Part shown: one piece after another, positions 3,273 through 61,446 of the stretch
How the letters are laid out: the number at the start of each line of letters is the position of its first letter
Numbering within the stretch: the first letter of the stretch is position 1
Assembly: GCA_002010665.1 (NCBI GenBank)
Contig: MTON01000027.1
Coordinates: 22,780-86,779 of the forward strand
DNA length: 64,000 bases
Direction: 5' to 3'
Source: Candidatus Aminicenantes bacterium JdFR-78
GTDB taxonomy: Bacteria > Acidobacteriota > Aminicenantia > JdFR-78
Notes under the pieces: model-generated
The model's database searches: none
What the model was told of the DNA's origin: nothing
The model's input: the letters and a program-made list of their open reading frames with translations, nothing else
Position numbers and translations under genes: made by a program

Positions 3273-4505
3273 ATGAGAAAAATTAAACTTCATACTCAAA
3301 TTTTAATTGGAATGCTTTTGGGAGTTATAATTGGGATAATTTTCCAAGAGAAAGCAGTAATAATTAAACCAATTGGTACCATCTTTATAAGACTTATTAC
3401 CATGGTTGTTGTTCCCTTGGTTTTTGTATCACTTTTTATTGGAACCGCAAGTTTGGGAGATATAAAGAAATTGGGAAGGATTGGTTTAAAAGCTTTCCTT
3501 TACTTTTTCATCACAACAGCAATAGCGATTTCTGTGGGTGTTACTCTTGCGAATGTAGTGAAACCAGGGAGAGGTTTGCCGGATGAAGTTCAAGCTCAAT
3601 TGTTGAAAAATTACCAGCAGGAAAAGATATTTGATTTTGGTAAATTAGAGGAGAGGCCGAGTCTGATTCAAACATTGGTAAATATAGTACCAACAAATCC
3701 AGTAAAAGCACTTGCAGAAGGTAATATGTTACAAATAATATTTTTAGCGATTATTTTTGGAATAGCAGTTACTCTCATAAAAAAGGAAAAAGCAAAAACA
3801 GTTATAGATTTTTTTGATGGCTTTAATGATACAATTATACAAATTGTACATATCGTTATGAGGCTTGCTCCTTACGGTGTTTTAGCTCTAATAGCTGCAG
3901 TAGTCGGGGAATTTGGAATAGATATTTTACTACCTTTATTAAAGTATTCGCTTGTGGTAGTTTCCGGACTCTTCATTTACACTTTAAGCGTAAATAGTTT
4001 AACAGTTGGTCTAATAGGGCGATTTAGCCCTATTAAATTTTTTAAAAATTATAGACCAGCTATGTTAATAGCATTCAGCACTTCAAGCAGTAATGCTGCT
4101 CTTCCAATTGCCATGGAATGTGTTCAGGAAAAAATGAATGTTTCAAGAGAAGTTACAAGTTTTGTCCTCCCACTCGGTGCAACCATTAATATGGACGGAA
4201 CTGCCCTTTATCAAGGAGTAGCTGCTATTTTCATAGCACAAATTTATGGAATGAATTTGGGGATTGTTCAACAATTGACAATAATTCTCACAGCTACCTT
4301 AGCATCTGTTGGAGCTGCTGGTGTGCCAGGTGCTGGAATAATTACTTTGGCAATGGTGCTTCAGGCAATAAATGTTCCTTTAGAGGGGATTGCTTTGATT
4401 TTGGGGGTTGATAGGATTTTGGATATGCTTAGAACTACCACTAACATTATAGGAGATGCAGCAGGAGCAGTGGTTGTAAATTCAACTGAAAAATTGAAGA
4501 AATGA
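3273..4505 (+). CDS. Dicarboxylate/amino acid:cation symporter (DAACS family, GltP/SstT-like)
   Basis: About 410 aa polytopic membrane protein with DAACS hallmark segments ('SSSNAALP', 'NMDGTALYQ', 'GVPGAG...'). Confidence 0.85.
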   Translation: MRKIKLHTQILIGMLLGVIIGIIFQEKAVIIKPIGTIFIRLITMVVVPLVFVSLFIGTASLGDIKKLGRIGLKAFLYFFITTAIAISVGVTLANVVKPGRGLPDEVQAQLLKNYQQEKIFDFGKLEERPSLIQTLVNIVPTNPVKALAEGNMLQIIFLAIIFGIAVTLIKKEKAKTVIDFFDGFNDTIIQIVHIVMRLAPYGVLALIAAVVGEFGIDILLPLLKYSLVVVSGLFIYTLSVNSLTVGLIGRFSPIKFFKNYRPAMLIAFSTSSSNAALPIAMECVQEKMNVSREVTSFVLPLGATINMDGTALYQGVAAIFIAQIYGMNLGIVQQLTIILTATLASVGAAGVPGAGIITLAMVLQAINVPLEGIALILGVDRILDMLRTTTNIIGDAAGAVVVNSTEKLKK

Positions 4506-5503
4506 CAAAAAATATTGGATATTATAGAAGAATATTACAAATGTTTTATCATTACAAAAAGAAATCTTTAATTTTACCCTATTACCCTGTTAGGTTTTGG
4601 ATTGAGCCTACAAGCTATTGTAATCTTAAATGTATAATGTGTCCTAATAAAGAGTTAAAAAAAGAGGAAAATGGTTATCTTGATTTAGAACTATTCAAAA
4701 AAATAATAGATGAAATAAAATATTTTGCTTTTGAAATTTTTCTCCATCACAGAGGAGAATCTTTAATACATCCGGATTTTTTCAAAATGGTAAAGTATGC
4801 TCATGAGGCAGGTATAACCGTTAAACTCCATACTAATGGAACTCTTCTTGATGAAAAAAAATCTTATCAGATAATAGAATCAGGACTTGATCAATTATCA
4901 TTTTCCTTTGATGGTTTTGACAAAGAAATTTATGAAAAAATAAGAGTCGGTGGGAATTTTGAAAAAGTGGTTAATAATATTATTCAATTTTTAAAAATTA
5001 AGAAGGAATTGAAGGCAAAGAAACCTTTTACGATTATTGAACTGATAAATTTTCCTCACATTTATTCAGATAATTCTAAAGAGAAAAGGGAAAAATTTTT
5101 AAACAGATTTAAGGGGCTCCCTCTGAATAGGGTTGAAATAAGAGAAATGCATAACTGGGCTGGACTGGTTGAAAAAAATCAAAACTCAAAAATTAAAACC
5201 CAAAATTCAAAAAATTACTCTCCCTGCACTTTTCTCTGGCAGGCTTTGATTATATTTTGGGATGGCTCTGTAGTTCCCTGTACTCAGGATTTTCATGGAT
5301 ATTATATACTGGGAAATGTAAAAGATGCTTCGATAAAAGAAATTTGGAATAATGAAAAAATGATAAATTTAAGAAAAAAAATGAGAAATAAGGATATTTG
5401 TGATCTTGATACATGTAAGAATTGTGACCGTTTGTGGAGAGAGAAATTTTTGGGGATTCCAAAAGAATATTTATGGAAATTTCTTTTGAAGAGAATGCCT
5501 TAA
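4502..5503 (+). CDS. Radical SAM enzyme with C-terminal SPASM-type Cys cluster
   Basis: CxxxCxxC 'CNLKCIMC' near the N-terminus. C-terminal extra Cys cluster 'CTFLW...PCTQDF...CDLDTCKNCDRL' consistent with a SPASM/twitch auxiliary Fe-S domain. Confidence 0.75.
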   Translation: MTKNIGYYRRILQMFYHYKKKSLILPYYPVRFWIEPTSYCNLKCIMCPNKELKKEENGYLDLELFKKIIDEIKYFAFEIFLHHRGESLIHPDFFKMVKYAHEAGITVKLHTNGTLLDEKKSYQIIESGLDQLSFSFDGFDKEIYEKIRVGGNFEKVVNNIIQFLKIKKELKAKKPFTIIELINFPHIYSDNSKEKREKFLNRFKGLPLNRVEIREMHNWAGLVEKNQNSKIKTQNSKNYSPCTFLWQALIIFWDGSVVPCTQDFHGYYILGNVKDASIKEIWNNEKMINLRKKMRNKDICDLDTCKNCDRLWREKFLGIPKEYLWKFLLKRMP

Positions 5504-5507
5504 ATAA

Positions 5508-6482
5508 ATGAAAATAGCAGCTCTATTACCTCATTTTGAAGTTTTCGGGGGAGTTAGAAGATATTTAGAAATAGGAAATGAATTGATAAAAAGAGGTCAC
5601 GAGTACGTGATTTTTAATGTGAGAGATAAAAAAGTGGAATGGTTTGATTTCCGTGGAAGCATTAAGTCAATGGACCAGATTGAAAAAGATTATTTTGACT
5701 TTGCTATTTGTAGTGAGTATTCAATATTGAATCATTTCGAAAAAATAAAAGCAAAAAGGAAAATTTTTTATTTTATATTAGAAGGACATAAAAGAGAGAA
5801 AGAGGTTATAAAAAAAGATTATATATTTCTTGGAAACTCTATAGGGATTTGTAAGAAAATTGAACGAAAATATGGTAAAAAATGTTTTCATGCACCAGGA
5901 GGAATAAATCCCGAGATTTTTTATCCTATAAAGAGGGAAAAGGACGAAAAGTTTAGAATTCTCTGTTATGGAAGAATATATAAAAGAAGAAAAGGTATAA
6001 ATAAAATTATAAAAGCAGTTGAAAAATTGTATAAAAAATACAAATTTTTAGAATTGATACTTTTTGATACACCTGTAGGAAAAGAAAAAATAGACATAAG
6101 GAAATTAATTAAGCCCAAAGTGCCCACTAAGTTTTTTATCAATCTTCCACAAGATAAAATGGCATGGCTATATTCTCAAGGAGATGTATTTGTTAGTGCA
6201 GAGAAAAGAGCGGGCTGGAGTAACACAACCGCAGAGGCAATGGCTTGTAAAATACCAGTTATATGCACAAAGAGTGGAACACAGGATTTTGCAATAAATA
6301 ATCAAACAGCACTCATAATTTCTTTTAACCATCCTTTATTTATAGCAAAAAAAATAGAGAATTTAATTAAAAATGAAGAATTAAGGTGCAAATTAGCGGA
6401 GAATGGATATAGAAAGATTCATGAGTTTACATGGTCAAAATTAGTCGATAAGCTGGAAAGTATATTTAATGACTTATTATAG
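5508..6482 (+). CDS. Glycosyltransferase (GT4-like, GT-B fold)
   Basis: N-terminal 'HFEVFGGVRRYLEIGNEL...GHEY' and C-terminal 'EAMACKIPVI' resemble the GT4 donor-binding region. Confidence 0.6.
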   Translation: MKIAALLPHFEVFGGVRRYLEIGNELIKRGHEYVIFNVRDKKVEWFDFRGSIKSMDQIEKDYFDFAICSEYSILNHFEKIKAKRKIFYFILEGHKREKEVIKKDYIFLGNSIGICKKIERKYGKKCFHAPGGINPEIFYPIKREKDEKFRILCYGRIYKRRKGINKIIKAVEKLYKKYKFLELILFDTPVGKEKIDIRKLIKPKVPTKFFINLPQDKMAWLYSQGDVFVSAEKRAGWSNTTAEAMACKIPVICTKSGTQDFAINNQTALIISFNHPLFIAKKIENLIKNEELRCKLAENGYRKIHEFTWSKLVDKLESIFNDLL

Positions 6483-6570: not shown

Positions 6571-6801
6571 ATGAGAGAAGAAGAATTGAAAAAACTTCTC
6601 CTAAAAGAGAATGAGGAATTTAAGAGACTTTATGAAAAACATCAGGAATGTGAGAAAAGATTGAAGATGCTTCAGGAGAAATTATATTTAAATGAGAACG
6701 AGAAATATGAGGAAAAAATATTAAAAAAAGAGAAGTTAGCATTAAAGGATAAAATGTATCATATTATAAATGAGTATAAAAAAATAAAAAATGGTGAATA
6801 A
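6571..6801 (+). CDS. Small coiled-coil protein, DUF465/YdcH-like
   Basis: 76 aa, strongly charged heptad pattern. C-terminal 'KKEKLALKDKMYHII' resembles the YdcH family signature. Confidence 0.45.
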   Translation: MREEELKKLLLKENEEFKRLYEKHQECEKRLKMLQEKLYLNENEKYEEKILKKEKLALKDKMYHIINEYKKIKNGE

Positions 6802-7825
6802 AAAAGATATAAATCTTGCTATTATTGGAACTTTTTCTCTTAAGGGTAAAGAATTAAAAAATACTCTGGAAAATAAGGATTTGCCAATAAAAAAAATAAG
6901 ATTCCTTGATCCAGAAGTAAAAGAAGAATACAGCCATCTCACTGATTTTAAAGGTGAGGCACAAATAATACAGAGTATAAAGGAAGAGCATTTATATAAT
7001 ATGGATATTGTATTTTTTGCTTCAGATTCAGAAATAAGTAAAAAATATTGTTCTCTTGCACAGGAATATAATTTCAAAGCGATTGATCTAAGTGGTACCT
7101 TTAATACTAAAACAGAAATTCCTTTGGTGGTAGCAGGAGTAAATGATGAAGTTTTAAATAATGAAAGTTATATAATAGCTAACCCCCATCCTTTAGCAAT
7201 TATACTCTCTACCTTTATACATTTTCTCCAAAAAAATTATTCTCTAAATAAAATACTTGTAGTTGCATTTCAACCCGCTTCAGAATATGAGAAGAGCGGA
7301 ATTGATGAATTAATGGATCAGAGTATAGGTTTTTTAAATTTATCCAAAATTCCAAAAAAGATATTTAAAGAACAAGTCGCATTTAATTTGATTTCAAGGG
7401 TTGGTAAATTGGAAGAGGACGGATTTACTGACATTGAAAGAACAGTTGTTAAAGAAATAAAAAGAATTCTTTCAAATGAATCTGTTCCATTATCTTTAAG
7501 TCTTATACAGGCTCCTATTTTTCATACCTATTCTATTTTATCTTTTATAGAATTTATAGACTCTCCAACAATTTCTGATTTAGAAAATATTTTTAAGAAA
7601 TCTTCTCTTTTTGAAATTACTTCTCCTAATGAAACTCCTCCATCTCCAGTTTCAACAGCAGGTAAAGATAAAATATGCATTGGACAGATAAAAAGGGATA
7701 GAGTTTTCTCAAATAGTTTCTGGTTCTGGTTGGTTGCTGATAATCTTACAAGAGGTTCTGTTTTAAATGCAGTAGAGGTCGCGGAGAAACTAATATCAAT
7801 AAAATTTCCGGCAATTAATAAATGA
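6791..7825 (+). CDS. Aspartate-semialdehyde dehydrogenase-like protein lacking catalytic Cys and NADP-binding glycines (probable pseudoenzyme / USG-1-like)
   Basis: Clear Asd architecture: 'IANPxxxxI' where Asd has 'ANPNCST', here 'ANPHPLA'. 'GTFSLKG' replaces GxxGxxG. Conserved 'FQPASE', 'FHTYS' and C-terminal 'FWLVADNLTRGSVLNAVEVAE'. Confidence 0.6.
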   Translation: MVNKKDINLAIIGTFSLKGKELKNTLENKDLPIKKIRFLDPEVKEEYSHLTDFKGEAQIIQSIKEEHLYNMDIVFFASDSEISKKYCSLAQEYNFKAIDLSGTFNTKTEIPLVVAGVNDEVLNNESYIIANPHPLAIILSTFIHFLQKNYSLNKILVVAFQPASEYEKSGIDELMDQSIGFLNLSKIPKKIFKEQVAFNLISRVGKLEEDGFTDIERTVVKEIKRILSNESVPLSLSLIQAPIFHTYSILSFIEFIDSPTISDLENIFKKSSLFEITSPNETPPSPVSTAGKDKICIGQIKRDRVFSNSFWFWLVADNLTRGSVLNAVEVAEKLISIKFPAINK

Positions 7826-9612
7826 AAGGAATTAAGAAACTATTCAAATTGATCACTCCCTATAAATTGATTTTCGCACTTTCTCTAATTGCTATGTTCA
7901 TGGTCGCAGTTTTTACCTATTTATTTGTGAATCTGGTTCAGCCAATAATGGACCGTCTTTTTAATCTGGTACCTCAAGGTGTTCCTCAAAAGATAAGGGT
8001 TATGGATGTAATTTTTAATTTTCTTAATATAACGAAGGAAAATTTAATTGTTGCCTTACCTATCATTTTAATAGTAACAATCTTTGGAAAGGGTTTATTT
8101 TCTTTTCTTTCGACTTTTGGAATGAAATCAATTGGGCACAGAATTGTCAAGGATTTAAGGGATAAATTATATGAGAAAATAATCCATCAATCCCTTACAT
8201 TTTTCAATAAATCTTCCACAGGAGAATTGATATCAAGAGTTATAAATGATACTCAAAAAATTCACGAAGCTGTTTCTGGTAGTCTTTCTGTGTTAATTAC
8301 GGAAACTATGACTCTTTTAGTGCTTTTTGTTGGAATTTTTATTATAGATTGGCAACTTACTTTAATTTCTCTTTCTGTTACACCATTTGCCATTATTCCT
8401 TTAATTTTGTTTGGTAAACAGCAGAAAAGAAAAGGTCTTGAAGGTCAGGTGAAAATAGCAGAGATTACTAATTCTTTGTTTGAGACTATCGCAGGAAACA
8501 AGATTATTAAAGCATTTAATATGGAGAAATTTGAAATAAAAGAATTTGTAAGAAAAACCTATGAACATTTTAAAATAAATATAAAATTGGCATTAATAGG
8601 GAGTCTTTCCTCCCCCTTTATGGAATTTATTGGTGCTCTTGCAGCTGCCTTCATTCTAATTATAGGAGCAAGTAAAATAGCCCGGGCTGAGATTAGTCCT
8701 GGAGATTTTGGTTCTTTTATTATGGCTATATTAATGATGTATATGCCAATAAGGAGATTAAGTAGAGCCAATAATACTATTCAGCAAGGTCTTGCTGGCT
8801 TGGAGAGAGTACATGAAATTTTAGCTATGAAATCTGATGTTGTAGAAAGTCCGAATGCATATCCTTTACCTCCAGTTAAAGGGGAAGTTGAGTTTAAGGA
8901 TGTGTATTTCAGTTATAATCAATCAATACCTGTTCTTAGGGGAATAAATTTAAGGGTTTCACCAGGGGAAATGGTTGCATTGGTTGGTTTAAGTGGTGCG
9001 GGGAAGACCACTCTTGTCAGTTTAATACCTCGATTTTATGATGTTTCATCAGGCAAAATTACAATTGATAAAATAGATATAAGAGAAGTGACTCTTTCTT
9101 CTCTTAGAGCTCAAATTTCACTTGTGACTCAAGATACAATTTTATTTAATGATACTGTAAAGAATAACATTGCTTATGGAGTTAATAATGCAAGTATGGA
9201 TGATATAATAAAAGCATCAAAAGCTGCAATGGCGCATGAATTTATTATTAAGCTTCCTAAAGGCTATGATACATGCATTGGAGAAAGAGGATGCTTGCTC
9301 TCTGCTGGGCAGCGCCAAAGAATTGCAATAGCTCGTGCTATTTTAAAGAATGCTCCAATTTTAATTCTTGATGAAGCAACATCTGCCCTTGACAGCGAGT
9401 CAGAGCGATTAATTCAAATTGCTCTAAATAATCTAATAAAGAATAGAACCACATTTGTTATTGCACATCGTCTTTCAACAATTAAAAAAGCAAATAGAAT
9501 TGTTGTTCTTGATAAAGGGAAAATTGTTGAAATGGGCTCTCATGAGGAACTTTTAAAGAAAGGTGGATTATATAGAAGACTCTATGAGCTCCAATTTATT
9601 GATTTAGAATAA
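7822..9612 (+). CDS. ABC exporter, fused permease-ATPase (MsbA/lipid A exporter-like)
   Basis: Six N-terminal TM helices. Walker A 'GLSGAGKTT', signature 'LSAGQRQR', Walker B 'ILILDEATSALD', H-loop 'IAHRLST'. Confidence 0.85.
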   Translation: MKGIKKLFKLITPYKLIFALSLIAMFMVAVFTYLFVNLVQPIMDRLFNLVPQGVPQKIRVMDVIFNFLNITKENLIVALPIILIVTIFGKGLFSFLSTFGMKSIGHRIVKDLRDKLYEKIIHQSLTFFNKSSTGELISRVINDTQKIHEAVSGSLSVLITETMTLLVLFVGIFIIDWQLTLISLSVTPFAIIPLILFGKQQKRKGLEGQVKIAEITNSLFETIAGNKIIKAFNMEKFEIKEFVRKTYEHFKINIKLALIGSLSSPFMEFIGALAAAFILIIGASKIARAEISPGDFGSFIMAILMMYMPIRRLSRANNTIQQGLAGLERVHEILAMKSDVVESPNAYPLPPVKGEVEFKDVYFSYNQSIPVLRGINLRVSPGEMVALVGLSGAGKTTLVSLIPRFYDVSSGKITIDKIDIREVTLSSLRAQISLVTQDTILFNDTVKNNIAYGVNNASMDDIIKASKAAMAHEFIIKLPKGYDTCIGERGCLLSAGQRQRIAIARAILKNAPILILDEATSALDSESERLIQIALNNLIKNRTTFVIAHRLSTIKKANRIVVLDKGKIVEMGSHEELLKKGGLYRRLYELQFIDLE

Positions 9613-21843: not shown

Positions 21844-22914
21844 TTATTCTCCCATTCTTCTTAGGGCTGAGCCTAAAGCAATTCCGAATAGGGGAGCCAT
21901 TTCAACTGTATAAAAAGGATCAAATTTTTTTAGGTCATAGTCTATATTTCTAAAAGGATTTAATACCTCTACATCTACTTTAAACCCGTCTCTAAAATAA
22001 TCTACAATACCTGTTAATTTTGCTGTTCCTCCACTCAAAAATATTTTTTCAATTTTGCCTTTTGTTATTTTTTGAGAATCCAGAAAAGCAAAAGTTTTAT
22101 CAATTTCGTCTTTAAGATCCCTTAAATTGGCATCAATTACAGCCTTTGCATCAGAATAAGAAATTTCTTTTACTGTCATCCCTCTTTTCAGTTGTTCAGC
22201 TTCTTCATAATTCAGGTTGAACTCTTTCTGGATGTTCTGTGTAAGATAATTTCCTCCCATTGCAAATTCCCTAACAAAAATTGGGATACCTTTTTCCACT
22301 ACATTTATTGTGGTTAAATCAGAGCCAATATTTATTAATGCAATTCTCCAATTTCTATAATCATCATAATTTATTTCCAATGAATTCAAAAGAGCGAATG
22401 CATCAACTTCTATTACTTCTAGATTCTTACCTGCTTGAGTAATAACGCTTCTATAACTATTAATTTTATCTTTTTTTACAGCAACTAATAACACATCCAT
22501 TTTTCTTTCTTCTTCAACCTTAGGAGTTTCTAAAATGACATAATCTATGGTAACTTCATCTAAAGGGAATGCTATATGTTGTTTTGCTTCCCATAGTATT
22601 GATTCCTCAAGCTCTTCAGGAGTAAGATAGGGAAGGGAAATCTTTTTAATTATCACTCCACTTCCAGAAAGGGAGAGCGCAACATTATTGTTTTTTATAT
22701 TATTCCTTTCAAATAGCCGATGAATTGTATCTATTACTACTGTAGAATCCATAATAACACCTTCAACTATGCTTTCATGTGGAAGAGTTTCATATCCAAT
22801 TTTGGACAGTTCAAAGCCTCTATTTCCCCTCTTTGGTTTCAGTTCTACAGCTTTAATTGAGTGAGAGCCAATGTCCAAACCGACTAACTGCTTACTTTTT
22901 TTAATTTTAATCAC
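21844..22914 (-). CDS. pilM: Type IV pilus assembly ATPase-fold protein PilM
   Basis: Actin/FtsA-like fold ('VGLDIGSHSIKAVEL', 'GGTAKLTG'). Confidence 0.85.
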   Translation of the reverse strand: MIKIKKSKQLVGLDIGSHSIKAVELKPKRGNRGFELSKIGYETLPHESIVEGVIMDSTVVIDTIHRLFERNNIKNNNVALSLSGSGVIIKKISLPYLTPEELEESILWEAKQHIAFPLDEVTIDYVILETPKVEEERKMDVLLVAVKKDKINSYRSVITQAGKNLEVIEVDAFALLNSLEINYDDYRNWRIALINIGSDLTTINVVEKGIPIFVREFAMGGNYLTQNIQKEFNLNYEEAEQLKRGMTVKEISYSDAKAVIDANLRDLKDEIDKTFAFLDSQKITKGKIEKIFLSGGTAKLTGIVDYFRDGFKVDVEVLNPFRNIDYDLKKFDPFYTVEMAPLFGIALGSALRRMGE

Positions 22915-40716: not shown

Positions 40717-42315
40717 TCATAACTCAAATATGTGTTTTCCTTCTCCGTAAACTAACATTTTATAAGTCTTCTCAATTCTATCCCAGTTTTCCTCTCTATC
40801 AAGAGCCCAGTATCTTCCAATAACTGAAACCACTTTTCCAACACCGAGTTTTTTTACCTCATTTTCAACCTTTTCTATATAAATTGCTCCACTCTCTGGT
40901 CTTTCGCCTCTTCTCCCAAGAAAGGAGTGAATATAAACATTTTTAAGATTTAAATTCTTAACCATCTTTAATAATGCAAAAAGATGTTTTATTGTTCCAT
41001 GTGAACTGTAAAAAGATACAATTCCCATTAGATGCAGGGATTTATTGCTGTCTCTTGCCTTATTCATTGCCCGTAGCAGAGTCTTGTTCTGGAAGAAAGA
41101 ACCATCCTCAATTGCTTTATCAATTCTCAATCTATCTGAATAAATTATTCTTCCTGCTCCGAGATGCAGATGTCCTGCTTCTGAATTTCCAACAGTTCCA
41201 GCAGGCATTCCTACCGATTCTCCTGATGCATTCAATTTCGTAGAAGGATAATTCTTCCAAAAATAATCAAAATTGGGGGTATTTGCTTTTGCAATCATAT
41301 TCCCGTGCTTTTCCTCTCTCAGTCCCCAGCCATCAAGAATTAAGAGCAAGATCCTGTTTCTTTTTTTTAAAATAGGCGAATTATTTAATATGAGATTTTT
41401 TCCGGTCATTGATTCAGGTTTTGGAATGTTAAAAAGTGATAATATTGTAGGTGCAACATCTATTAAATTTCCTTCTCTCTCTAAAATAATTTCTTCCTTT
41501 GAGTCATACAAAGGATCAATTAGAATAAAAGGAACTGGATTTTTAGTGTGACCTGTATTTATTGTTCCTTCAGGATAAAGCCATTCCTCCACTGTTCCAT
41601 GATCCGCAGTAACAATAACAGTTATTCCTGAATTCAGTGCTTCTTTTACAACTTTTCCCATATAAAAATCAACAGCCTCCACTGCTTTTTGGACTGCTTT
41701 TTCGTCCTCAATGTGTCCAACTACATCAACATTTGCAAAATTTACAAGAAAGAAGTCATACTTTTTATCTTTTAACTGTGCTATAGCTGTTTTACTCACT
41801 TTCTCGATGCTCATCTCAGGTTTTTCATTATAATTCTTAATATTCGATGGTGATGGTATGACAATTGTGTTTTCTCCTGGAAAAGCTTTAATCCTTTTTC
41901 CATTAAAAAAATAACTTACATGAATGGCTTTTTCTGATTCTGAAATTTTAACCTGGTTTATCCCATGTTTGCTTAAGACTTCACTTAATGTATCTTTTGT
42001 TTCTCCAAGTGGTGGAAAAGCGACCTTTGTTTTTAAATCCGGATGATATTCAATCATTGTGACCAAATTTATTTCCAAATCCTTTTCTACTGGAAAGTGA
42101 TTAAAATTTTTATCAATTAAACTCTGTGATAATTCTATTTCTCTCTCTCCTCTGATGTCATAGAAAATTACATAATCACCATTTTTTAATCTTCCAATTG
42201 GATTTCCTTTCTTATCTGTGAGAACTATTGGCTCAAGAGTCTCGTCTTCTTGACCAGATTTATAGGCATCCCTTATAGCCTGCGCCATAGGTGAAAATAA
42301 TCTATTTTCTTTCAT
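40717..42315 (-). CDS. gpmI: 2,3-bisphosphoglycerate-independent phosphoglycerate mutase
   Basis: About 530 aa. Metal-binding 'ADHGT', 'DVVGH', 'SEAGHLH', Ser-phosphotransfer 'GNSEAGH'. Confidence 0.85.
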   Translation of the reverse strand: MKENRLFSPMAQAIRDAYKSGQEDETLEPIVLTDKKGNPIGRLKNGDYVIFYDIRGEREIELSQSLIDKNFNHFPVEKDLEINLVTMIEYHPDLKTKVAFPPLGETKDTLSEVLSKHGINQVKISESEKAIHVSYFFNGKRIKAFPGENTIVIPSPSNIKNYNEKPEMSIEKVSKTAIAQLKDKKYDFFLVNFANVDVVGHIEDEKAVQKAVEAVDFYMGKVVKEALNSGITVIVTADHGTVEEWLYPEGTINTGHTKNPVPFILIDPLYDSKEEIILEREGNLIDVAPTILSLFNIPKPESMTGKNLILNNSPILKKRNRILLLILDGWGLREEKHGNMIAKANTPNFDYFWKNYPSTKLNASGESVGMPAGTVGNSEAGHLHLGAGRIIYSDRLRIDKAIEDGSFFQNKTLLRAMNKARDSNKSLHLMGIVSFYSSHGTIKHLFALLKMVKNLNLKNVYIHSFLGRRGERPESGAIYIEKVENEVKKLGVGKVVSVIGRYWALDREENWDRIEKTYKMLVYGEGKHIFEL

Positions 42316-56461: not shown

Positions 56462-57601
56462 TTAATATTTTATCTCATTCCAGTTTTCAATTTTTAATCT
56501 TTTAATCATTATATTTCCTGTTTCCTTGGAGCGAAGAAGAGAATAGATATAACCTCGCTTGATTACATGCGGATAGCAAGGTAACTTCGTATAATACAAG
56601 AACTTCCCTTTTGAACTGAAAATATCTATGTCCCATTCCTCTCTCTTATCAGATGGTGACTTAAATTTAATTACCCATATTCTTCCTTTCTCGTCAGTAA
56701 GTATATCAGTAAAAAATGGACAGTATTCAGGAATATACATCCTCTTTAATTTTTTGGCTTTCCTTGGAACAGGAATCGGATTTTCATCTTTTTTTATTTC
56801 AAAAATTAAATTACCTTCTTTATCAAGAACAAATAATCTATATTCATCTGACTTTGCATATATAATTTTATTTTCAAATGAAGCGAGAACTAATCTTAGA
56901 GCATATGGGCTCAAAACTCCTCCAAAAACTCCTCCACCTCCTTTGCCTTTTATTTTTATATTTCTCTCAATTAATTTATCTATTTCTTTTATCAGTTTGC
57001 CTTTAAAATCCAGCATAACAAGACAGTTGTATGCTCCGCTTTCCTCAAATTGAAGAACTGGAATAAAAATTCTCTGCTCAGATGTAATTACAAAGCGAAG
57101 ACCTAAATAAGGAGGGATTGAAAAATCAAAAGTCGAATAATCACAGGGAATTCTCTCTACAAAATCTCCATTTTTATTAAACTTCTCAATCTCTCTTCCA
57201 TCTTTAACATATATGTTATCTTCAGTGTCAATAAATATAGAAACTGGAAATTCAAACTCACCAGGTCCTTTCCCTCTTCTTCCAATTGTTTTAAGGTATT
57301 TTCCATTTTTATTAAATACTTGAACTCTACAATTTCCCCTATCAACTATATAGATGTTTCTCCTGCTATCAACCCCAATATCTGAAACCCGATAAAACAT
57401 ATAATTCTCATCTATTTCTGATTCCTTGATTGTTAAGTCTTCCTTTAATTTAAGTTTTAATTCACTACATTCAGGGTTAATCTCAGAACTACATATTTCT
57501 ATAAAAGCAAAAAACATAAAATAAAGAAGACATAACAAATAACCCTTTTTATTTTGTGTTCTCATCTGATAATTTTTTATAAAATAATTTTCGAATTTCA
57601 A
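56462..57601 (-). CDS. Secreted NHL-type beta-propeller protein (paralog family A, copy 1)
   Basis: Signal peptide. First blade is a canonical NHL repeat 'GRRGKGPGEFEFPVSIFIDTEDNIYVKD'. Paralogous to 57912-58999, 60322-61446 and 63693->64000. Confidence 0.55.
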   Translation of the reverse strand: MKFENYFIKNYQMRTQNKKGYLLCLLYFMFFAFIEICSSEINPECSELKLKLKEDLTIKESEIDENYMFYRVSDIGVDSRRNIYIVDRGNCRVQVFNKNGKYLKTIGRRGKGPGEFEFPVSIFIDTEDNIYVKDGREIEKFNKNGDFVERIPCDYSTFDFSIPPYLGLRFVITSEQRIFIPVLQFEESGAYNCLVMLDFKGKLIKEIDKLIERNIKIKGKGGGGVFGGVLSPYALRLVLASFENKIIYAKSDEYRLFVLDKEGNLIFEIKKDENPIPVPRKAKKLKRMYIPEYCPFFTDILTDEKGRIWVIKFKSPSDKREEWDIDIFSSKGKFLYYTKLPCYPHVIKRGYIYSLLRSKETGNIMIKRLKIENWNEIKY

Positions 57602-60321: not shown

Positions 60322-61446
60322 TTAATCTTTAATTTTTAAAGAATATACTGCAAAACTTGGAGTTACTTCATCAATGCAAAATGTATAAATATTATTATTT
60401 TCATCAATATCCATTATCGTTTCTGGGCCAAATTTTATATCCTTCTTTATTAAAGTCCCATCTAAAGAAAAAATGTCCAGATAATTTCTCGTCTTTTTAA
60501 TTCCCTTTTCTCTATAAGTCTCGGATAATTGAACTACTACATGGTTTTCTTTTGTAAAATGAACTCCTGCAATTACAATTAATTTTTCAATAGAATCCAT
60601 GATTCTCTGAATTTCTGCAACACTTTTAATTTTTTTTACGCTTAATTCGACTAGTTTTTTAGGAAATTTATAACCTGGGATTTTTCTTCCAAATTTTCTT
60701 ATCACTTGTCCATTTGTATTCAGAATATAAATTATATAAGGATTCGAGGGTTCAAAATGTGCAAATGCAATTAGATTATTTTTAACATCTATACTCCCCA
60801 TATAAGGCGTATGCAAACTATCCTTTCTTGGTTTTGGCCTATCCGGGAGAACTTCCTCAAAAAATGATTTAATGTATTTTCCAGTTCTATCATAAACATG
60901 AATATGATATTTTGACATAAGTTGTGGAGGGAAATAATAAATTACAATATTTCCATTTATGTCAAAATCCATACTTCGAGGATATTTCCAAGGCATGAGT
61001 TTTATAGATTTAATAAAATTCAAAGAATTATCAAAAATGCTTATTCTTCTGTTTCTAATTTCAGCTACCCAGATATTTCCTTTCTCATCAATTGCAAAAT
61101 GAGAAGGAGAATCAAGCTCTCCAGGTCCTTGTCCTTTTCCTCCTGCTTCTTTTATAAATTTTCCATCCTTTGAGAATTTCTTAATTGTATGTCCTTTAAA
61201 ATCAAGAACAAAGATATTACCATCTCTATCAGCTTTAATATCAGTTATCAGGAAAAAAAGCTCTTCTTTCTTTTCTTCACTTCCGATTTTGAATTTTTTT
61301 TCAATAATTACTTCTTTACCTAAAATTCCATTTGTTATAATAATTAAGCTTAGAAAAACCACAAAGATCTTCCTCATTCTTTCTCTCATTTTTTCATCCC
61401 CTGTTTGATATTTATCTATAATTACTATTGAGCTATCTCTATGCAT
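60322..61446 (-). CDS. Secreted NHL-type beta-propeller protein (paralog family A, copy 3)
   Basis: NHL blade 'GGKGQGPGELDSPSHFAIDEKGNIWVAE'. Probable true start at the internal 'MRERMRKIFVVFLSLIIITNG' signal peptide (about 61389). Confidence 0.6.
   Translation of the reverse strand: MHRDSSIVIIDKYQTGDEKMRERMRKIFVVFLSLIIITNGILGKEVIIEKKFKIGSEEKKEELFFLITDIKADRDGNIFVLDFKGHTIKKFSKDGKFIKEAGGKGQGPGELDSPSHFAIDEKGNIWVAEIRNRRISIFDNSLNFIKSIKLMPWKYPRSMDFDINGNIVIYYFPPQLMSKYHIHVYDRTGKYIKSFFEEVLPDRPKPRKDSLHTPYMGSIDVKNNLIAFAHFEPSNPYIIYILNTNGQVIRKFGRKIPGYKFPKKLVELSVKKIKSVAEIQRIMDSIEKLIVIAGVHFTKENHVVVQLSETYREKGIKKTRNYLDIFSLDGTLIKKDIKFGPETIMDIDENNNIYTFCIDEVTPSFAVYSLKIKD

Follow-up and report, generated by a model that had tools for sequence, protein, structure and literature searches.

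The stretch of DNA considered here, referred to below as the window, comprises 64,000 nucleotides of the genome of Candidatus Aminicenantes bacterium JdFR-78 (Acidobacteriota, Aminicenantia), namely positions 22,780 to 86,779 of contig MTON01000027.1 (assembly GCA_002010665.1). Between a small gene of the DUF465 type and a gene for an MsbA-like ATP-binding cassette (ABC) exporter, it carries an open reading frame whose product resembles aspartate-semialdehyde dehydrogenase (Asd) and which is given the working name AsdL (Table 1). AsdL is a paralogue that keeps the Asd fold and has no nucleophilic cysteine, and it is notable for its conservation throughout the phylum, the coordinated replacement of its active site, and its place in operons with genes of envelope-lipid biogenesis.

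Table 1. Features of the asdL locus, in window coordinates; fractions are counts among 239 homologues of AsdL
Feature	Position	Strand	AsdL residues	Description
GT1/GT4-family glycosyltransferase gene	5508..6482	+		5' of the DUF465 gene
DUF465 coiled-coil gene	6571..6801	+		76 aa; Pfam 25.4 bits (cut-off 25); overlaps the start of asdL by 11 nt
asdL	6791..7825	+	1-344	344 aa; ATG start, TGA stop, intact frame
N-terminal Rossmann domain			9-123	Pfam Semialdhyde_dh PF01118, 48.8 bits, E 1e-12
Asd/ArgC dimerisation domain			148-320	Pfam Semialdhyde_dhC PF02774, 63.4 bits, E 4e-17
Remodelled fingerprint	6827..6847	+	G13-T-F-S16-L-K-G19	Central Gly of GxxGxxG replaced by Ser
His-Pro pair (codons CAT CCT)	7187..7192	+	His133-Pro134	Stands for Asn-Cys of ANPNCST; His 220/239, Pro 227/239
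Oxyanion loop	7271..7285	+	Q161-P162-A-S164-E165	Equivalent of the Asd Q-S-x-S-G loop (oxyanion Gln and SGAG)
Gln and Phe-His-Thr-Tyr	7508..7531	+	Q240; F244-H245-T-Y247	Q240 218/239, F244 239/239, H245 232/239
Asp-Asn of the ADN motif	7739..7744	+	D317-N318	Common to true Asd; D 236/239, N 234/239
MsbA-like ABC exporter gene	7822..9612	+		596 aa; TIGR02203 MsbA_lipidA 574 bits (cut-off 602); ABC_membrane, ABC_tran

The homology of AsdL to Asd lies far above chance, and the complete two-domain architecture of that enzyme has been kept. An initial annotation, made from the sequence, had recognized the Asd-like order of domains together with several conserved blocks, all of which were located (VVAGVNDEVL at residues 113-122, FQPASE at 160-165, FHTYS at 244-248, and FWLVADNLTRGSVLNAVEVAE at 312-332), and the hidden Markov models (HMMs) of both Pfam domains match the protein. 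Searches of the Protein Data Bank sequences with phmmer returned Asd2 of Vibrio cholerae (2qz9, E 2e-36), the Asd of Thermus (2yv3, E 2e-32), and the USG-1 homologue of Pseudomonas aeruginosa (2hjs, E 1e-31). The AlphaFold2 model, computed from an alignment of 32 sequences, reached a mean local confidence (pLDDT) of 93.7 and a predicted template-modeling score (pTM) of 0.92, and Foldseek superimposed it on 2qz9 with template-modeling (TM) scores of 0.90-0.93 and on 2hjs with a score of 0.88; by its two-domain fold, as seen in both the Pfam and the Foldseek matches, AsdL belongs with Asd. Because the first Rossmann strand begins at residue 7, too early to leave room for a signal peptide, the modelled protein is probably cytoplasmic.

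Among described enzymes, the short asd_B type (TIGR01296), which includes V. cholerae Asd2 (2QZ9/2R00) and the Thermus thermophilus enzyme (2YV3), has the same length as AsdL and is about 25% identical to it. The two share the motifs GIDEL..Q, Q.AFN, and VADN...NA and the residues Gln161, Ser164, Asp99, and Asp317-Asn318, but AsdL is encoded in operons of lipid genes and not of amino-acid genes.

What has been replaced is the catalytic set. A published account (PMC12060211) describes the roles in Asd of the cysteine, the histidine, the two arginines, and the lysine, which are conserved in organisms ranging from bacteria to fungi. In comparisons with three solved relatives, the nucleophile loop of Asd, IIANPNCSTIQM, aligns without gaps to IIANPHPLAIIL of AsdL, and because the pairing is gap-free the nucleophilic cysteine corresponds to Pro134. 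AsdL contains only two cysteines, at positions 87 and 296, neither of which is conserved or near the nucleophile loop, and cysteine stays below 25% in every column of the family alignment of 239 sequences. The missing catalytic cysteine that the initial annotation had pointed out is therefore genuine, no adjustment of gaps restoring one, and the loss is wider than was claimed. According to the alignments with solved relatives and two MAFFT alignments, the catalytic histidine has become Tyr247 (tyrosine in 187 and histidine in 44 of the 239 sequences), the carboxylate-binding arginine Gln240, and the phosphate-binding arginine Asn105. The substrate-binding lysine and glutamate are replaced by Thr218 and Ile215, respectively, and the SGAG loop reads SEYE. 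From the catalytic and substrate-binding set, the oxyanion residue Gln161 alone survives; Ser164 of the same loop is also kept, and Pro162 beside it is specific to the family (each present in 238 of the 239 sequences). A new, near-invariant histidine, His245, stands two residues before the former catalytic histidine position and on the same predicted strand (residues 246-255). Side chains two residues apart on a beta-strand should face the same way, as would apply to His245 and position 247.

The curated models agree with this picture. AsdL falls below the cut-off of all nine NCBIfam Asd models, the best scores being 197.8 against a cut-off of 223 for NF011456 and 190.9 against 324.2 for TIGR01296. 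Because the whole Cys/His/Arg/Arg/Lys/Glu set has been replaced and the scores lie under every cut-off, AsdL, judged from its residues, is not a working Asd and cannot carry out the Asd reaction. The generic name given by NCBI is 'Asd/ArgC dimerization domain-containing protein', and records from JGI and at least one from NCBI (P0005, P0015, and P0380, among many others) name members of the family 'aspartate-semialdehyde dehydrogenase', which the sequence contradicts. The idea for which such names speak, that AsdL is a genuine Asd whose active site has been misaligned, is barely credible in view of a nucleophile loop that pairs without gaps to three structures, with no cysteine nearby and no cysteine column among the 239 sequences. 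Decay to a pseudogene deserves the same negligible weight, given the intact frame, the confident fold model, and the pattern of substitution described below.

The ratio of nonsynonymous to synonymous substitution rates (dN/dS) is 0.054 between AsdL and an 87%-identical relative (locus L093) and ranges from 0.017 to 0.21 across five pairs from Terriglobia; an identical AsdL protein is present on 16 assembled contigs. AsdL is thus under strong purifying selection and is not decaying. Conservation, expressed as sequence-weighted fractions over the 239 homologues, is high at the positions that distinguish the family (His133 0.88, Pro134 0.91, Pro162 0.99, Gln240 0.83, Phe244 1.00, His245 0.98, and Trp311 0.91), and positions common to true Asd, namely Gly13, Gly19, Asp99, Ser164, Gln195, Asn199, Asp317, and Asn318, are equally conserved. 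That the replaced residues are conserved in the manner of a real active site argues for a new functional cleft and not a dead one. The combination of lost catalytic residues with purifying selection is that of a pseudoenzyme, and the suggestion in the initial annotation of a pseudoenzyme or repurposed binding protein fits the catalytic losses and the low dN/dS.

A further statement of the initial annotation, that the dinucleotide-binding glycines are missing, was too strong: the central glycine of GxxGxxG has indeed been lost, but the first and third (Gly13 and Gly19) are kept. Across the family, glycine is found at position 13 in 228, serine or threonine at position 16 in 231, and glycine at position 19 in 222 of the 239 sequences. 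A subclade from Thermoanaerobaculia (P0137, P0139, P0155, P0160, and P0169) has asparagine or aspartate in place of the first fingerprint glycine (N/D-T-G). After beta-2, the 'LASERS' stretch of Asd reads 'FLDPEV' in AsdL, and in 26 of 32 diverse family members the 'AS.RS' of Asd, which we take to be the site of the NADP 2'-phosphate, has given way to 'LD', with an acidic residue closing the strand. AsdL accordingly has neither the full GxxGxxG fingerprint nor the Ser/Arg 2'-phosphate site of Asd. Rossmann folds that prefer NAD typically end beta-2 with an acidic residue. Other residues on the cofactor side, Asp99, Ser164, and Asp317-Asn318, are 94-99% conserved. Because two of the glycines, Ser/Thr16, Ser164, Asp317-Asn318, and the acidic end of beta-2 have been retained, nucleotide binding may have been remodelled and not lost.

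These same residues sustain the main rival to the interpretation preferred below, namely that AsdL has remained an enzyme and works as an NAD(H)-dependent oxidoreductase, in which His133, His245, and Tyr/His247 would provide acid/base catalysis on an alcohol or a carbonyl group. This is possible, and we regard it as clearly less probable than an even chance. The fingerprint has been remodelled and not erased; the cofactor-side residues and the acidic end of beta-2 are those expected of an NAD-preferring fold; the polar residues that have newly appeared on the former catalytic loop and strand hardly vary; and the alternation at position 247 is between tyrosine and histidine, either of which can donate protons. 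The substrate would be the head group of a lipid, or a precursor of lipid or lipopolysaccharide (LPS), that the products of neighbouring genes make or use, and catalysis would resemble that of the structurally related Gfo/Idh/MocA oxidoreductases. Those enzymes combine a Rossmann domain with a C-terminal alpha/beta domain like that of GAPDH and employ His/Tyr/Lys/Asp acid-base catalysis without a thiol. They illustrate that a protein of such architecture could still be a dehydrogenase without a cysteine, but no sequence relationship between them and AsdL was tested for or found, and the proposed likeness is mechanistic only. A side chain at the central fingerprint glycine, however, usually weakens dinucleotide binding, and the PssA/Psd pathway, whose genes commonly precede asdL in related bacteria, lacks no step for which AsdL would be a candidate.

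The family to which AsdL belongs extends well beyond its class. The 120 database proteins closest to AsdL share 41-87% identity with it, and those among them that are named all come from Candidatus Aminicenantes/Aminicenantia. When 1.84 billion cluster representatives were searched, many more distant proteins with the same signature came up, their scores interleaved with those of canonical Asd; the best 150 representatives include 52 canonical proteins, 35 with the His-Pro pair, and 93 without the nucleophilic cysteine. Besides His-Pro, the cysteine-less members of these 150 representatives (P0121-P0270) show further signature types, including Ser-Ser, Ser-Ala, Gly-Ala, and the USG-1-like Cys-Ala. 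With 93 of the 150 nearest clusters in this condition, cysteine-less Asd-like proteins may form a large, heterogeneous, and neglected group. Genomes were also scanned with one family-specific peptide pattern derived from an 11-sequence subset, which matched 415 species genomes. The best 80 of these 415 are nearly all Acidobacteriota (Terriglobia, Bryobacterales, Solibacteraceae, and Acidobacteriaceae) and include one genome labelled Candidatus Xenobia and one cultured organism, Acidicapsa dinghuensis. Thermoanaerobaculia contribute a further subclade, and other members are labelled Acidobacteriota (unclassified).

A neighbour-joining tree was built from 171 sequences. In it the proteins with the signature, AsdL of the window included, form one contiguous group, and every bootstrap (60 of 60) leaves canonical Asd out of the smallest clade that unites the window protein with a member from Terriglobia. 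The signature of the clade consists of G-x-x-[ST]-x-x-G, His-Pro for Asn-Cys, Q-P-x-S, glutamine for the carboxylate-binding arginine, and F-H-x-[YH], and the window protein carries all of its elements (S/HP/QPAS/Q/FHTY). The AsdL family is thus monophyletic and is spread through the Acidobacteriota, with representatives in Aminicenantia, Terriglobia, and Thermoanaerobaculia. Full-text searches found no literature on the family or on a link between it and pssA, lptE, or msbA, nor did searches on USG-1 and other paralogues of Asd, on Asd together with PssA/Psd in Acidobacteria, or on DUF465/YdcH yield a paper on it.

The initial annotation had compared the protein with the USG-1 proteins, Asd paralogues exemplified by usg of Escherichia coli and 2HJS of P. 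aeruginosa that, like AsdL, keep the Asd fold without the full catalytic set. The comparison does not hold at the level of orthology. Length and fold are similar, and the P. aeruginosa protein shares with AsdL both a glutamine at the position of the carboxylate-binding arginine and the absence of the catalytic histidine. USG-1 nevertheless retains the glycines of GxxGxxG, has a cysteine immediately ahead of the nucleophile column ('SPCAVA'), and lacks the HP, FH, and W311 signatures of AsdL. The scores of AsdL against the NCBIfam models PRK05671 (171.8, cut-off 284), PRK08040 (159.2, cut-off 273), and PRK06901 (64.3, cut-off 437), which we assign to the USG-1 type, are all below cut-off, and in the neighbour-joining tree 2hjs occupies a separate branch with other variants outside the His-Pro clade. 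Orthology between AsdL and the USG-1 proteins of proteobacteria is consequently very improbable. On the strength of the models, the tree, the gap-free alignments, and dN/dS, a USG-1 orthologue, a misaligned true Asd, and a pseudogene are essentially excluded.

The asdL gene stands in compact strings of genes that share its direction, among genes of envelope-lipid biogenesis. In Terriglobia the order is (DUF465)-Psd-PssA-AsdL-LptE-HolA, often with overlapping stop and start codons. Among 80 loci, all of those with room for PssA have it upstream (76 of 76), LptE follows downstream in 77 of 78, HolA is present in 75 of the 80, and DUF465 was detected in 27. The order DUF465-Psd-PssA-AsdL is found both with P0122, a protein of 44% identity from the nearest lineage outside Aminicenantia, and with P0128 on an acidobacterial contig of thermophile type, and loci of the Thermoanaerobaculia type read DUF465-PssA-AsdL, with no psd between the first two genes. 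PssA and Psd themselves pass their NCBIfam cut-offs (TIGR00473, 137.9 against 107; NF003685, 210.7 against 183), and a protein search with the PssA of locus L091 returned thousands of PssA sequences. A small gene of the DUF465 type lies upstream of asdL at loci L001-L009 and L090-L093, in three acidobacterial classes (Aminicenantia, Terriglobales, and Thermoanaerobaculia). Across rearranged loci, the recurring immediate neighbours are thus pssA and psd for phospholipid synthesis, lptE for LPS assembly, and msbA for lipid export, together with DUF465. A class I/II aminotransferase gene followed by a family 2 glycosyltransferase (GT2) gene occupies the place of lptE beside asdL at loci L006/L007 (9086-11313) and L009 (7756-8919), and L006 has, about 7 kb upstream, genes for LpxB and for an acyltransferase of lipid A, another envelope-related setting.

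The window has the form DUF465-AsdL-MsbA, in which the start codon of the exporter overlaps the stop codon of asdL (ATGA), and the same order recurs at three further Aminicenantia loci whose AsdL proteins are 41-46% identical; the MsbA-like gene takes the same downstream position at L001, L003, L004, and L094. The DUF465 gene, which adjoins asdL on its 5' side, had not been listed in the initial annotation; we know of no function for DUF465. That annotation did place asdL between glycan-synthesis genes and an MsbA-like exporter, and both are present, but the glycan genes are not a conserved context. A GT1 glycosyltransferase gene precedes DUF465 in two of the three other Aminicenantia loci, is absent from L001, and is not conserved outside the class, and the other upstream glycan genes of the window are not conserved.

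Conceivably, this neighbourhood is an inherited order without functional meaning, and AsdL acts elsewhere, for example in the sensing of an amino-acid metabolite. Such an explanation draws on the difference in neighbours between classes (PssA/LptE as against MsbA), on the housekeeping genes that the strings also carry (holA, yicC, gmk, coaBC, and priA), and on the lack of an above-chance promoter or terminator signal bounding an operon: in the window, none exceeded the shuffled expectation between positions 5400 and 10600. It has to contend with the adjacency of PssA at every one of the 76 informative Terriglobia loci, which recurs in loci of the Thermoanaerobaculia type and in other lineages whose AsdL proteins are 29-44% identical to that of the window, with the stop/start overlaps on both sides of AsdL, and with the return of four envelope-lipid genes (pssA, psd, lptE, and msbA) beside it in rearranged loci. 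We consider it unlikely, with a small chance of being correct.

In the interpretation that we prefer, and to which the sequence and gene order would give about an even chance, AsdL is a ligand-binding accessory or regulatory protein of membrane-lipid biogenesis, a repurposed Asd fold without redox function. No other part of the protein is as conserved as the lining of the former active-site cleft, for which reason the cleft would still function as a ligand site, though it would no longer support thiol-based reduction of an acyl-phosphate. The remodelled Rossmann site would probably still hold a nucleotide or another phosphorylated ligand, and AsdL could act as an accessory or regulatory subunit in the biogenesis of phospholipids and LPS, that is, in the synthesis of phosphatidylserine and phosphatidylethanolamine (PS/PE) and in lipid export. 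Pseudoenzymes that serve as allosteric or scaffolding partners typically have lost their catalytic residues, keep the fold and cleft under selection, and are encoded by genes linked to the pathway. AsdL resembles them in its catalytic loss, conserved cleft, and pathway-linked gene, features read in its case from sequence and gene order.

Several considerations weigh against a ligand-binding role. The function assigned to AsdL rests on gene order, which within one phylum can partly mirror shared descent and not function, and lptE and holA, for example, stand side by side in many bacteria although they are not known to be linked in function. No single neighbour is universal, DUF465 occurring at about a third of the Terriglobia loci (27/80) and MsbA being adjacent in Aminicenantia only, and neither Psd, PssA, nor LptE was detectable in the 64-kb window. 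Profile scores barely separate the family from the enzyme, the window protein scoring 282 bits with the HMM of the Terriglobia family and 268 with that of true Asd; because HMM scores alone are too weak, the grouping of AsdL rests on signature residues, the tree, and gene context. Moreover, the conserved His/His/Tyr/Gln/Ser set, Gly13, Gly19, Ser164, Asp317-Asn318, and the acidic end of beta-2 would suit an active, non-thiol, NAD-dependent enzyme equally well, and the ligand-binding and oxidoreductase readings cannot be separated by sequence alone.

With Asd2 of V. cholerae, Asd of Thermus, and USG-1 as queries, tblastn detected asdL alone in the window, and no canonical asd was found in 94 family loci either, results that do not bear on the rest of the genome; the ten best-scoring representatives of true Asd bear, where a cluster name is present, names of Bacillaceae only. 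Downstream of the MsbA-like gene, the string continues with YicC, Gmk, CoaBC, UDG, and PriA. Upstream, at 3273-5503 on the forward strand, genes for a sodium:dicarboxylate symporter and a radical SAM/SPASM protein overlap by 4 nt and sit inside a string of glycosyltransferase and epimerase genes (GT2, GT1, NAD-epimerase ... GT1). Elsewhere the window carries housekeeping and peptidase genes typical of Aminicenantes (a PilQ-type secretin, DnaK, S9/S41/M16 peptidases, and an HD-GYP response regulator), and neither tRNA genes (ARAGORN) nor Rfam families at the gathering threshold were found within its 64 kb. At 40717-42315 on the reverse strand, it encodes a 532-residue phosphoglycerate-mutase-like protein with Metalloenzyme (residues 102-298) and iPGM_N domains; the latter follows at residues 398-528 and covers profile positions 1-131 of 217, which is either an odd domain order or a partial domain. 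Two paralogous genes for NHL/six-bladed beta-propeller (DUF5128) proteins lie at 56462-57601 and 60322-61446, both on the reverse strand, and the interval between them (about 57.6-60.3 kb) contains few long open reading frames.

The naming of this cysteine-less family as Asd is likely to be a systematic mis-annotation, and metabolic reconstructions from metagenome-assembled genomes of Acidobacteriota and Aminicenantes may therefore credit these organisms with a step of lysine, threonine, and methionine synthesis that AsdL cannot perform. For studies of how active sites are repurposed, the family provides a case in which the catalytic residues have been exchanged as a set for another set that is equally conserved.

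Acidobacteriota are among the most abundant bacteria of soils and sediments and have unusual envelope lipids, about which little is understood. With its fixed place throughout the phylum, either between pssA and lptE or beside msbA, AsdL offers a testable handle on the biology of the acidobacterial envelope. Speculatively, and on a reading that we think rather unlikely as a whole, AsdL might take part in acidobacterial membrane biogenesis as a component that is peculiar to the phylum and has not been described before, either a new NAD-dependent enzyme whose substrate would be the serine or ethanolamine head group of a phospholipid or a precursor of lipid A/LPS, or a nucleotide-sensing subunit that would couple PS/PE synthesis by PssA and Psd to lipid export by MsbA and LptE. 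If true, either variant would mean that an active site of amino-acid biosynthesis has been rewired.

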